In this document: one piece after another, positions 22,580-25,759 of the stretch | Position numbering within the stretch: position 1 is the stretch's first letter | Layout: each line of letters opens with the position of its first letter | Program-made: the position numbers and the translations under genes | Notes under the pieces: model-generated | What the model was told of the DNA's origin: nothing | The model's input: the letters and a program-made list of their open reading frames with translations, nothing else | Databases searched by the model: none | Assembly (NCBI RefSeq): GCF_017876815.1 | Contig: NZ_JAGIOS010000001.1 | Location: forward strand, 2,490,001 to 2,522,000 | Length of the DNA stretch: 32,000 nt | DNA from: Sinorhizobium meliloti | GTDB taxonomy: Bacteria > Pseudomonadota > Alphaproteobacteria > Rhizobiales > Rhizobiaceae | Reading direction: 5' to 3'

Positions 22580-24033
22580 CTCGTGCCCTCGCTGGTCTGC
22601 CAAGCAAAGCGGTCATCGATGTCCTCTTCGAGGAGCCCCTCCGTGTGCAACTCTTCGAGCAGATTGGGGACTGCAAGGGCACTCGCTCCGTCCGCTATGA
22701 CTCGCACAGCTATCTCCGACGCTGTGCAATCGCCGCACGCGATTAGATCACCAACGGAGATCGGAGCCACGTCGTCGAGGATCACATATTCATTGTAACG
22801 TGAGCGCAGGTGAAAGTGGCGGTTCCCGGCCTCGTAATGCAGGTCTCCGCGAAAGCGGATCGGCAGGTTGGGAGATGGGCTCTCGCGCATATGCTGGTCG
22901 ATCATACTCTGGAGTTCCTCCCGGAATCCGTCTGGCGTCTTGAAAAAGCGTTCATCCAAGATGCGGTAGCCGAGTGGCCAGCGTTTGCTCGCTGGTACTG
23001 GCGTGACCAGCTGTACCCGTCTTTGCAGCATGTTCACGAGGAAGCCGGAAACGCAGGCGATTGTCGTGGAACGATACTCCGGTACCGCGATTGCATCCTT
23101 GTTGTTGACTGCCCTGAGTGTTACCTCGCGACTGCGCCCAGCGAGAGCTTTTGGGGCCTGCGCCTCCTTGCCCTGCTGGACGAGTTCGACCCCCATCAGG
23201 TCCTCGGGCGAAAACGCCGCGTGAATCTGATTGAGGTGATCGGTGCTTAGCACGGAGAAACGATTTGTAACGCTTCGGTAGCGGTCGAATAGTTGGAACA
23301 GGCGTTCAGTGAGTGCCCGATCCTTGAGGGGGGCCGCCGTCGTCGTTTGCGGCAGTGCGCCCGTGATTTGATAGTAGTCGGACAGAAAGCGGTCGTAGTC
23401 CGGGTTATCCATTGGCTCGGTGGCCCAGTAGCAGAAGCCGGTGCGGGCAGCCGAACCAAACATCTCGCTCGCGACACCGACCACGCCGCGCCAAAGCTCG
23501 GCATGCTCTTCGTTATATTCAAAGTAGCCCTTGAAGCGGCCAGCTGACAGGCCGCAAAACCAGCAACCGACGGTGCAGCCTTCGCTCAGCTCGAAAGCGA
23601 TAATGGGGTGCGTGATCGCCCCCGCTGATCCGACGTGGCTATTGCAGCGGCGGATCTGGCGCTCGCGCCACACGTGAAAACGAGGGGCGACCATCGCCAT
23701 TTGGCCCTCATCGCGCAGGATGTCGCGATGGCGGATCATCTCGTCGATATACTCATACCATATTATAGCCAGCGGCCAGGACGAACACTCGGGCTTAGAG
23801 CGATAGTTCATGTAGTCGCGGCGCCAGAGCGGTAGCATCTCCAGAGGGTCGACGTCGATGCCGTAGCGCTCGGTCACCTTTCGAGGGTTGTCGAGGTTCT
23901 CGTTGAGCTCGGTGCGGAACGCGAGGTCGCCGGTCAGGCGCTCCATGAAGCGCTTAATGTGCGCCAGCGTACGAAGCTGTTTGGGTGTGCGCCGGTCAAA
24001 GATCTTTCGGTAGTACTCCGCAGCGTTTGGCAT
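22576..24033 (-). CDS. Radical SAM enzyme (CX3CX2C, no SPASM Cys cluster, PqqD/RRE-like C-terminus); candidate peptide epimerase or other maturase
   Basis: ELSEGCTVGCWFCGLSAGRF is the canonical rSAM motif and follows an N-terminal extension of about 150 aa. C-terminus: ISVGDLIACGDCTASEIAVRVIADGASALAVPNLLEELHTEGLLEE. The ATG at 24033 is preferred, because the duplicated remnants also start MPNAAEYYRK. Confidence 0.8.
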   Translation of the reverse strand: MPNAAEYYRKIFDRRTPKQLRTLAHIKRFMERLTGDLAFRTELNENLDNPRKVTERYGIDVDPLEMLPLWRRDYMNYRSKPECSSWPLAIIWYEYIDEMIRHRDILRDEGQMAMVAPRFHVWRERQIRRCNSHVGSAGAITHPIIAFELSEGCTVGCWFCGLSAGRFKGYFEYNEEHAELWRGVVGVASEMFGSAARTGFCYWATEPMDNPDYDRFLSDYYQITGALPQTTTAAPLKDRALTERLFQLFDRYRSVTNRFSVLSTDHLNQIHAAFSPEDLMGVELVQQGKEAQAPKALAGRSREVTLRAVNNKDAIAVPEYRSTTIACVSGFLVNMLQRRVQLVTPVPASKRWPLGYRILDERFFKTPDGFREELQSMIDQHMRESPSPNLPIRFRGDLHYEAGNRHFHLRSRYNEYVILDDVAPISVGDLIACGDCTASEIAVRVIADGASALAVPNLLEELHTEGLLEEDIDDRFAWQTSEGTR

Positions 24034-24082
24034 CACTTTTGGTCCCCCTGTCCCACTTTCGTCACGGGTGAATGCCGCTTGC

Positions 24083-24442
24083 TCAGATCACCACCACAAC
24101 GACGGTGACAACGGCTTCGGCTCCTGCAAGGACAGTCGTCGCTGCCTCCGCGGCCTGGACCGCGGTGGTAGCGACGACAGCCGCCTGAAAGACCTTGGTC
24201 GAGGTCGCAACGTCCGACTTTAGCTTGCCGTCGACGACCGCATTGACCTGCTTGACGTTCGGATCGCCTGGGCTTCGCGATTGGATGTAAGTTTTAGCTT
24301 CATCGAGCGTGAACTCGTAGCCGCGCTCGTTTGCGGCAGCTACCAGCGCCGCGAGACCCGTGGCCTTCGGCTTCACCGCTTCAAGCAGATCATCGTCTTT
24401 TTCCAGGTCGTCGACGAACCGATATAGGTCAGCTTTCGTCAT
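24083..24442 (-). CDS. RiPP precursor peptide, Nif11-type leader, copy 1 (variant core)
   Basis: MTKADLYRFVDDLEKDDDLLEAVKPKATGLAALVAAANERGYEFTLDEAKTYIQ matches the Nif11 leader pattern (M..e.l..F...v..D..L.e.l.......v..lA.e.Gf.ft..e). The core is VFQAAVVATTAVQAAEAATTVLAGAEAVVTVVVVVI. The RBS is AAAGGAGGG. Confidence 0.8.
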   Translation of the reverse strand: MTKADLYRFVDDLEKDDDLLEAVKPKATGLAALVAAANERGYEFTLDEAKTYIQSRSPGDPNVKQVNAVVDGKLKSDVATSTKVFQAAVVATTAVQAAEAATTVLAGAEAVVTVVVVVI

Positions 24443-24572
24443 TGCATGTCCCTCCTTTTAGGGGCGATAGGAAAAATTTGGCTCGAGGAATGGACACATG
24501 ACTTGGCAAACAAGCCTGTCTCGCGGAACCGACAAAAGTGACTGCCACGCCAGAACGCACTCGAAGTTAAAA

Positions 24573-24603
24573 GCCACGCCGCGTGAGGAGCGGCCGGCGT
24601 GGC
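24573..24603 (-). terminator. Hairpin plus T-tract in the inter-precursor spacer (terminator or attenuator candidate)
   Basis: On the minus strand: GCCACGCCG-13 nt loop-CGGCGTGGC, followed by TTTTAACTT. Confidence 0.4.
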
Positions 24604-24607
24604 CAGC

Positions 24608-24673
24608 TGCGAAGCTGTTGCGGCGTGCGCCGGTCAAAGATCTTTTTCGGTAGTACTCCGCAGCGTTTGGCAT
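24608..24673 (-). pseudogene. Duplicated 5' fragment of the rSAM gene (MPNAAEYYRK..., then a 2-nt insertion and loss of homology)
   Basis: tttggcatgac...gatctttttcgg here versus tttggcatcac...gatctttcgg at 24001..24036. Confidence 0.85.
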
Positions 24674-24730
24674 GACTGTTTGGTCCCCCTCTCACACTTT
24701 CATCTTTCATCACGGGTGAATGCCGCTTGG

Positions 24731-25090
24731 TCAGACCACCACCACAACGACGGTGACAACGGCTTCGGCTGCTGTAAGCACAGTCGTCCCTGCCTCCACG
24801 GCCTGGACCGCGGTGGTAGCGACCGCAGCCGTCTGAAAGACCTTGGTCGAGGTCGCAACGTCCGATTTTAGCTTGCCGTCGACGACCGCATTGACCTGCT
24901 TGACGTTCGGATCGCCTGGGCTTCGCGATTGGATGTAAGCTTTAGCTTCATCGAGCGTGAACTCGTAGCCGCGCTCGTTTGCGGCAGCTACCAGCGCCGC
25001 GAGACCCGTGGCCTTCGGCTTCACCGCTTCAAGCAGATCATCGTCTTTTTCCAGGTCGTCGACGAACCGATATAGGTCAGCTTTCGTCAT
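24731..25090 (-). CDS. RiPP precursor peptide, Nif11-type leader, copy 2
   Basis: Same leader as copy 1. The core is VFQTAAVATTAVQAVEAGTTVLTAAEAVVTVVVVVV. The RBS is AAAGGAGG. Confidence 0.8.
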   Translation of the reverse strand: MTKADLYRFVDDLEKDDDLLEAVKPKATGLAALVAAANERGYEFTLDEAKAYIQSRSPGDPNVKQVNAVVDGKLKSDVATSTKVFQTAAVATTAVQAVEAGTTVLTAAEAVVTVVVVVV

Positions 25091-25220
25091 CGTTTTGTCC
25101 TCCTTTTAGGGGCGATAGGAAAAATTTGGCTCGAGGAATGGACACATGACTTGGCAAACAAGCCTGTCTCGCGGAACCGACAAAAGTGACTGCCACGCCA
25201 GAACGCACTCGAAGTTAAAA

Positions 25221-25251
25221 GCCACGCCGCGTGAGGAGCGGCCGGCGTGGC
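25221..25251 (-). terminator. Same hairpin plus T-tract in the next repeat unit
   Basis: Identical sequence at +648. Confidence 0.4.
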
Positions 25252-25255
25252 CAGC

Positions 25256-25321
25256 TGCGAAGCTGTTGCGGCGTGCGCCGGTCAAAGATCTTTTTCGGTA
25301 GTACTCCGCAGCGTTTGGCAT
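25256..25321 (-). pseudogene. Second duplicated 5' fragment of the rSAM gene
   Basis: Identical to 24608..24673, shifted by +648. Confidence 0.85.
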
Positions 25322-25378
25322 GACTGTTTGGTCCCCCTCTCACACTTTCATCTTTCATCACGGGTGAATGCCGCTTGG

Positions 25379-25738
25379 TCAGACCACCACCACAACGACG
25401 GTGACAACGGCTTCGGCTGCTGTAAGCACAGTCGTCCCTGCCTCCACGGCCTGGACCGCGGTGGTAGCGACCGCAGCCGTCTGAAAGACCTTGGTCGAGG
25501 TCGCAACGTCCGATTTTAGCTTGCCGTCGACGACCGCATTGACCTGCTTGACGTTCGGATCGCCTGGGCTTCGCGATTGGATGTAAGCTTTAGCTTCATC
25601 GAGCGTGAACTCGTAGCCGCGCTCGTTTGCGGCAGCTACCAGCGCCGCGAGACCCGTGGCCTTCGGCTTCACCGCTTCAAGCAGATTGCCGTCTTTTTCC
25701 AGGTCGTCGACGAACCGATATAGGTCAGCTTTCGTCAT
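25379..25738 (-). CDS. RiPP precursor peptide, Nif11-type leader, copy 3
   Basis: Identical to copy 2 except DD to GN at residues 17-18. Confidence 0.8.
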   Translation of the reverse strand: MTKADLYRFVDDLEKDGNLLEAVKPKATGLAALVAAANERGYEFTLDEAKAYIQSRSPGDPNVKQVNAVVDGKLKSDVATSTKVFQTAAVATTAVQAVEAGTTVLTAAEAVVTVVVVVV

Positions 25739-25759
25739 CGTTTTGTCCTCCGTGGATCT

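Follow-up and report, generated by a model that had tools for sequence, protein, structure and literature searches.

A precursor-gene array of variable copy number in a predicted proteusin-type cluster of a Sinorhizobium meliloti prophage

Layout of the array and its gene cluster

We analyzed 32,000 nucleotides (nt) of Sinorhizobium meliloti DNA (contig NZ_JAGIOS010000001.1, positions 2,490,001 to 2,522,000), hereafter called the window, in which a repeat search located, on the minus strand at 23962-25754, three 648-bp units arranged head to tail, with start-to-start distances of 648 and 648 nt. Each unit combines a gene for a peptide precursor with a Nif11 leader, a 57-nt spacer, a 5' stub of an epimerase gene that carries a +2 nt frameshift, and a 151-nt segment which we refer to here as J. 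This confirmed an original prediction, made from the letters alone, of a 648-bp tandem array built from a precursor gene, a 57-nt spacer, and the 5' end of the epimerase gene. The program TRF missed the array because its maximum period was 500, which is shorter than the 648-bp unit. As revealed by alignment of the units, the order of transcription is unique flank (above 25752), precursor 3, spacer/stub/J, precursor 2, spacer/stub/J, precursor 1, a 49-nt spacer, and finally the intact epimerase gene.

All parts of the array lie on the minus strand. The distal precursor gene, copy 3 (25379-25738), is transcribed first; its open reading frame (ORF) encodes 119 aa with a core that we call type B and with DGN at leader residues 16-18. 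It is preceded by a native flank (25739-25772) which contains the Shine-Dalgarno (SD) sequence GGAGGA, is homologous to the region upstream of a single-copy plasmid locus (L021, described below), and resembles the inner units only at 25739-25751. Downstream of copy 3 follow the spacer (25322-25378) and the 64-nt dead epimerase stub, together 25258-25378, with the stub ATG at 25321 and the frameshift after codon 10. The first of two copies of J (25107-25257) comes next and bears a terminator-like hairpin (25221-25251) followed by UUUU. A frameshifted ORF of 71 codons (25106-25321) starts at the stub ATG and crosses J, and its TAA abuts the next SD. The middle precursor gene, copy 2 (24731-25090), has a type B core, DDD at leader residues 16-18, J upstream, and a distal-type SD region. 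The spacer and stub after it (24610-24730, ATG at 24673) are identical to those at 25258-25378, and the second copy of J spans 24459-24609 (hairpin 24573-24603). The proximal precursor gene, copy 1 (24083-24442), has a core that we call type A and differs from the type B genes at residues 51, 87, 89, 98, 101, 106, 107, and 119.

Units 3 (25107-25754) and 2 (24459-25106) were identical at 645/648 positions, which is far beyond chance. As predicted, they differed at a single trinucleotide, 25687-25689, where the coding strand reads GCA in unit 3 and ATG in unit 2, giving Asp-Gly-Asn versus Asp-Asp-Asp. This site does not reflect a single event, however: the surrounding sequence is GGCGAT on plasmids, GGCAAT in copy 3, and GATGAT in copies 1 and 2, a pattern which implies one plus two substitutions on separate lineages. 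From 25752 outward the two units part ways, 13 nt upstream of the ATG, so that homology indeed stops before the start codon of copy 3, although not at the 16 nt that had been proposed. Unit 1 was diverged, also in line with the prediction, with 12 substitutions in the gene (concentrated in its core-coding third), 7-nt and 1-nt indels in the spacer, and differences at 5/13 SD-to-ATG positions. The 64-nt stub matches 62 nt (24033-23972) of the intact epimerase gene and has an AA insertion after codon 10. A stub of about 65 nt with a 2-nt insertion had thus been read correctly, but homology is lost at that point only at the protein level, since at the DNA level it continues for another 34 nt. The further segment of about 165 nt that had been noticed only between copies measures ∼167 nt and consists of the 151-nt J and a 16-nt SD region.

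The three 119-aa products carry the Nif11 leader domain PF07862 with E values of 1.4e-8 to 5.1e-8 (copy 3: 5.1e-8), above the gathering score; against the NCBIfam model TIGR03798 they scored 21-25 bits (copy 3: 21.4), below its 32.3-bit cut-off. Orthologous precursors on plasmids are annotated as Nif11-like leader peptide precursors. The cores are rich in Val, Ala, and Thr, as in ...TAAVATTAVQAVEAGTTVLTAAEAVVTVVVVVV. Next to the array lies the intact gene for a PoyD-type radical-SAM peptide epimerase of 485 aa (22576-24033, minus strand), which matched TIGR04517 over the full model length (E=1.8e-173, 577.6 bits versus a cut-off of 325) and whose CxxxCxxC motif reads CTVGCWFC; the first 62 nt of this gene are the source of the stubs. 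It is followed by a gene for a B12-binding radical-SAM C-methyltransferase (20633-22603, minus strand), matching PF04055 and the TIGR03975 model of maturation enzymes for peptides that are made by ribosomes and modified after translation (RiPPs) (E=1.6e-221, 737 bits versus a cut-off of 281.85). By these family assignments, the locus is a predicted minimal proteusin-type RiPP cluster, made up of Nif11-leader precursors, a PoyD-type epimerase, and a B12 radical-SAM C-methyltransferase. ORF and family scans detected no leader protease or exporter in the segment 20421-26851, in which only the precursors, the epimerase, and the methyltransferase were found; these functions could come from elsewhere in the genome.

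Copy number, recombination, and the plasmid connection

We gathered relatives of the prophage that contains this locus by exact-protein look-ups and counted copies as precursor starts. A 4.0-Mb contig of GCA_028895045.1 contains the whole window without a difference, and with it the same 3-copy array. Two copies were present in CP001830.1 (presumably the chromosome of S. meliloti SM11), AKZW, AKZZ, and JAFFTL; five internally distinct units, spaced 647/648/648/648 nt, were present in JADZOJ and JAJJBH, each on a 3.9-Mb contig; and a single, uncertain copy was counted in AKZY. The flanks are identical in all these prophage arrays of 1, 2, 3, and 5 copies, and the upstream edge and J are common to them. 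Eight draft contigs end inside the array, and four of these (L018 and L031-L033) stop exactly 151 nt into a precursor gene, where the copies first differ from one another, which is the signature of repeat collapse in short-read assembly. Such collapse had been anticipated, and copy counts from draft assemblies are lower bounds.

The AKZY contig (L030, AKZY01000118.1, 10725-12590) contains one recombinant precursor gene and an epimerase gene that is broken up into two ORFs (261 and 206 aa). This cluster may be decaying, or the split may reflect draft-assembly errors.

In a blastn search of plasmids the same cluster appeared, at ∼95% identity, on accessory plasmids and pSym replicons of S. meliloti. 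The plasmid arrays have the same parts, including J and the +2 frameshift, at a period of 639-640 nt. We counted four copies on pHRB800 (spacing 640/639/639), two on RCAM1115 p_3 and on HM006 pSymA, and 2+2 on RCAM1115 p_1 (L023, CP050559.1). On ml21 pMl1 (L021) there is a single copy without J, next to a degraded epimerase gene; this locus could be a collapsed array. In GTDB representatives whose epimerase is 69-72% identical (Bradyrhizobium, S. kostiense, and Ensifer) there is one precursor and no repeat, and their divergence is too great for conclusions about J or the flank. Together, counts of 1 (uncertain), 2, 3, and 5 in prophages and of 1, 2, 4, and 2+2 on plasmids agree with the instability of copy number that the original prediction expected among relatives.

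Several units combine parts of others. Copy 3 of the 5-copy arrays joins J, a proximal-type SD region, and DDD to a B core, and is the hybrid expected from an unequal crossover between proximal and distal units somewhere between nt 54 and nt 151. In the single copy of AKZY the distal flank is followed by an A core and the proximal spacer, which would be the expected product of contraction, unless it stems from assembly collapse. Residue 51 (T or A) and core type (A or B) occur together in all four pairings, and the proximal copy is a mosaic in L007, L009, L010, and L011. These recombinant units and four-gamete patterns point to unequal homologous exchange, and the recombinant units lend support to the earlier suggestion of amplification by unequal crossover.

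We also observed that units which are otherwise almost the same vary most in the 8 nt that separate the SD from the precursor ATG. In the SD-to-ATG region (24443-24458, 25091-25106, 25739-25751, and the equivalents in L005-L024) there are at least six variants in prophage arrays and one further variant on plasmids. One is 1 nt shorter and gives rise to the 647-nt unit, and many resemble mosaics of two or three base types. This variability may result from patchy repair at the edge of homology.

The two core types differ from each other at 9/114 positions, which amounts to seven non-synonymous codons and one synonymous codon. Between phage and plasmid, the 114 core-coding nt showed 0 differences for type B and 0-1 for type A, compared with 7-10 differences per 246 nt in the leader and 10-12 per 130 nt in the spacer and stub. 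When pooled, 0/228 differences in the core stood against 17/492 in the leader (Fisher p=0.0024) and 22/260 in the spacer and stub (Fisher p=6.6e-7). From this pattern both core types appear to be functional and constrained. Only B-type units have been amplified. As a separate observation, the core-coding part of the precursor gene (24110-24195, minus strand, and its equivalents in copies 2 and 3) is near-palindromic, and its RNA folds into a long hairpin (−47.5 kcal/mol, z=−3.9 versus shuffles) which two A/B differences in the 3' arm weaken in type B.

The surroundings of the cluster are those of a prophage, with genes for TerS, TerL, a ParB-methyltransferase, a protease-capsid fusion, portal and tape-measure proteins, and collagen-like fibres. 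A cargo segment (20421-26851, minus strand) that includes the array and the cluster has the large terminase gene (27698-29332) on one side and the protease-capsid gene (16047-17984) on the other. Because 26851-20421 is 93-96% identical to S. meliloti plasmid DNA, we infer that the prophage captured a plasmid segment. The plasmid clusters adjoin an acetolactate-synthase gene, fragments of which sit upstream of the array in the window, within the cargo; 5' fragments of this gene lie at 25725-25946, and a 39-nt repeat occurs at 25786-25824 and 26198-26236. A search of 50,697 phage records and of IMG/VR turned up no phage with such an array.

Downstream of the methyltransferase gene, the prophage version alone has an ORF of 410 aa (19026-20258, minus strand) with a hydrophobic N-terminus and a C-terminal CMTCH (CxxCH, haem-binding-like); it had no Pfam or NCBIfam match. 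The plasmids carry an ISRm4-3 transposase in its place.

Origin of the array

In a neighbor-joining tree of all units, the proximal units of phage and plasmids clustered together, and so did the distal units. The founding duplication is therefore older than the divergence of the plasmid and prophage versions, which share the stub and J and differ by about 5%. The amplification had been described as recent, and this holds for the extra B-type units but not for the founding event. Judged from the unit sequences, the later distal-type additions are independent in the prophage and plasmid lineages.

A second conclusion concerns the upstream edge. The 34 nt before the distal ATG (25739-25772) have a homologous counterpart upstream of the precursor in L021 and are unrelated to the last 20 nt of J. 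Since L021 is a single-copy locus without J, we take J rather than the upstream flank to be the foreign piece. J occurs only inside these arrays among the sequences searched; it may represent filler DNA or, alternatively, the 3' end left over from a larger first duplication after a deletion had trimmed it.

Breakpoints in the epimerase gene have recurred. On RCAM1115 p_1 (L023), positions 4966-8225 hold a second tandem duplication with a period of 1743 nt, whose junction places epimerase nt 376 right next to the position 315 nt before the precursor ATG and creates the 2+2 arrangement with a stub of 131 codons. As this event is independent, duplications with a breakpoint in the epimerase gene happened at least two times.

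We consider it very probable that the locus is a copy-number-polymorphic precursor array in a minimal proteusin-type RiPP cluster, acquired by an S. meliloti prophage from rhizobial plasmid DNA. The historical steps of this explanation, like its functional consequence, are drawn from sequence comparison. One old illegitimate event would have duplicated the segment from 13 nt before the precursor ATG to epimerase nt 62, with the two copies linked through the 151-nt J; the products would be a distal unit, with core B and a dead epimerase stub, and a proximal unit, with core A and the intact enzyme genes. The cores would then have diverged by mostly non-synonymous changes and stayed constant since. 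Thereafter, ∼490 nt of homology between units would drive unequal homologous recombination and gene conversion, by which whole 648-bp B-type units would be gained or lost and leader polymorphisms shuffled, leading to 1 (uncertain), 2, 3, and 5 copies. The predicted consequence is more B-type template per enzyme gene, read from a putative promoter upstream of the distal copy, while the J hairpins might attenuate read-through toward the enzyme genes.

A number of observations weigh against this explanation or parts of it. No homolog of J was found by blastn in the window or in loci L001-L004, nor did blastn and tblastn detect J or its ORFs outside arrays in 72,556 plasmids; of two exact-pattern scans of metagenome contigs for J, one gave no match and the other gave 5 chance matches without homology. 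The middle unit of the window has J upstream and yet a distal-type SD region, a combination that rules out its origin by a single crossover. Because one crossover is insufficient, this unit calls for a short patch of gene conversion, or for mismatch repair that was patchy where homology ends. As to copy number, the draft counts of 1 and 2 may be collapsed underestimates, and the count of three in the source strain rests on assembled sequence rather than on reads. The hairpin in J has a 9-bp stem and a 13-nt loop followed by only 4 U, which makes it a weak terminator candidate, and a terminator scan returned only 5-bp sub-stems, with 7 terminator-like sites in the region versus a shuffle mean of 5.5. 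Finally, RecA dependence, expression, and peptide production are predictions.

A different founding step is conceivable, although we regard it as unlikely: J could be the tail of a larger first duplication of the whole cluster, followed by an internal deletion from epimerase nt 62 to J, so that J would represent the old 3' end of the cluster including its terminator. Only the first event of the preferred explanation would be altered by this. J does bear a GC-rich hairpin and UUUU, as the 3' end of an operon would, and the DNA downstream of the methyltransferase gene differs by replicon (ISRm4-3 on plasmids, the 410-aa ORF in the prophage), so that the original 3' end could have been lost. Nevertheless, neither the window nor any plasmid carries another J downstream of the cluster.

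Considerably less probable is a simple tandem duplication of J, SD, precursor, spacer, and epimerase 5' end, in which J would be the original upstream sequence and the distal J would have been replaced later. Such a duplication requires no filler DNA, the independent duplication in L023 is exactly of this direct-junction type, and replicons with an array show rearranged DNA upstream of the distal copy, which in comparison with L021 holds an inverted duplicate of acetolactate-synthase 5' fragments. Against this, the upstream edge is identical in every array (1, 2, 3, and 5 copies in prophages; 2, 4, and 2+2 on plasmids), and any replacement must therefore predate all observed amplification. Moreover, the sequence before the distal ATG is common to L021, which is without J, with the caveat already given for that locus. 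The proposal that the upstream edge had been replaced after the amplification thus failed on both the shared edge and the 34-nt match.

We find it improbable, too, that the stub and J form a selected regulatory module, in which translation of the 71-codon frame would couple precursor translation and set the transcription that reaches the enzyme genes. Every stub retains its SD and ATG, the frame is open in 13/13 stubs of prophages and plasmids with TAA directly before the next SD, the hairpin lies inside the frame, and J is 98-99% identical between replicons, compared with 95-98% for the genes. However, all stubs descend from one event and J is only 1-2% diverged, so that an intact frame carries little statistical weight. 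The fold of the stub/J region is unexceptional (z=−1.9), and an Rfam scan of the spacer at E<=1 returned sub-threshold noise only, with no match. Separately, a scan of J for promoters on the coding strand gave no sigma-70-like site. The 71-aa product was considered as a real protein and rejected: the differences between copies are all non-synonymous, and the ORF is probably not a functional protein but a frameshifted stub plus filler. Stub and J would thus be a scar with a possible side effect through translational coupling or attenuation.

An equally doubtful extension is that the array works like a quick, inherited dial for the dosage of a pore-forming peptide borne by the phage. Unequal recombination would alter the number of B-type precursor genes, and the quantity of peptide and the ratio of precursor to enzyme would both follow from copy number. 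Each added unit would also bring a translated stub and a hairpin, linking the translation of precursors and cutting down read-through toward the enzymes, and prophage lineages would be selected for different settings.

Lastly, although 648-bp repeats of 99.5% identity are hard for short reads and many draft contigs break here, a mis-assembled or over-expanded repeat is highly improbable, given that the three units can be told apart by trinucleotide, SD region, and core type, that the same 3-copy sequence is found in the 4.0-Mb contig, and that independent assemblies and complete plasmids show the same architecture at different copy numbers, with the 5-copy arrays internally distinct.

Two further features of the prophage lie apart from the cluster. 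A complete Gabija anti-phage pair sits on the opposite (plus) strand within the structural region at 5724-9393, consisting of GajA (5724-7556; PDLC00086, E=5.7e-267) and GajB (7570-9393; PDLC00104, E=2.3e-235). Two adjacent ORFs at 11979-14572 (minus strand) contain long collagen-like Gly-X-Y repeats, with TRF periods of 9, 18, and 27, and are probably tail-fibre proteins of the prophage.

Significance and comparison with known systems

If the copy-number-polymorphic array has the proposed history, the locus would keep the scar of the birth of a multi-precursor RiPP cluster, from the clipped enzyme gene through core divergence to homologous expansion and contraction, and would be a small natural example in which to study how precursor genes arise and how their dosage evolves. 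For practical purposes, precursor counts obtained at this locus by genome mining are unreliable in short-read assemblies. S. meliloti is the alfalfa symbiont, and a proteusin-type cluster that moves from rhizobial plasmids into a temperate phage would be relevant to the spread of toxin or bacteriocin clusters among legume symbionts. In the literature library that was searched, no paper turned up that describes an S. meliloti proteusin, this cluster, or arrays of RiPP precursors that vary in copy number.

The closest comparison, based on established pathway knowledge and NCBIfam models, is with the proteusin pathways for polytheonamide (poy), aeronamide (aer), and landornamide (osp). The cluster shares with them a long nitrile-hydratase-like or Nif11-like leader, a PoyD-family epimerase, and a B12 radical-SAM C-methyltransferase, and its hydrophobic Val/Ala/Thr-rich core is of the kind that is epimerised and C-methylated in polytheonamides, although the product here is predicted from genes. 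Unlike in those pathways, the gene set is minimal, the cargo being without protease, transporter, N-methyltransferase, or dehydratase; the cluster is housed by a prophage and by rhizobial plasmids; and a GG cleavage motif is not evident.

Loci with several precursors of the Nif11 or nitrile hydratase leader peptide (NHLP) type, and prochlorosin loci, reportedly combine conserved leaders with variable cores. In a similar manner, several precursors per maturase are present here, with a conserved or homogenised leader, differing cores, and one enzyme set. The array differs from those loci in its strict head-to-tail arrangement with a fixed 648-bp period and an enzyme-gene scar in each spacer, in its copy-number differences within one species, and in having only two core types, each of them invariant.

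Tandem amplification of the RecA type, in the framework of Anderson and Roth and of Sandegren and Andersson, begins with a rare founding duplication which is followed by frequent expansion and contraction. The array would fit this scheme in its founding at little or no homology, its copy-number polymorphism, its hybrid units, and the apparent loss to one copy. Classical amplifications are large, costly, and transient under selection, in contrast to units of 0.65 kb that are stably inherited in several lineages and a founding duplication that has lasted long enough for the cores to diverge and be conserved. In cyanobactin patE genes, core cassettes are repeated inside one ORF; there, too, repeated peptide-coding units raise product dosage or diversity from one enzyme set, but in the array described here whole genes are repeated, each with its own SD.

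Set beside these systems, the mechanism is ordinary: a founding duplication and unequal recombination suffice, the cluster class is known, and no new mechanism is required. What is new is the combination of an enzyme-gene scar in each spacer, two conserved cores, recurrent breakpoints in the epimerase gene, and the proposed movement from plasmid to prophage.

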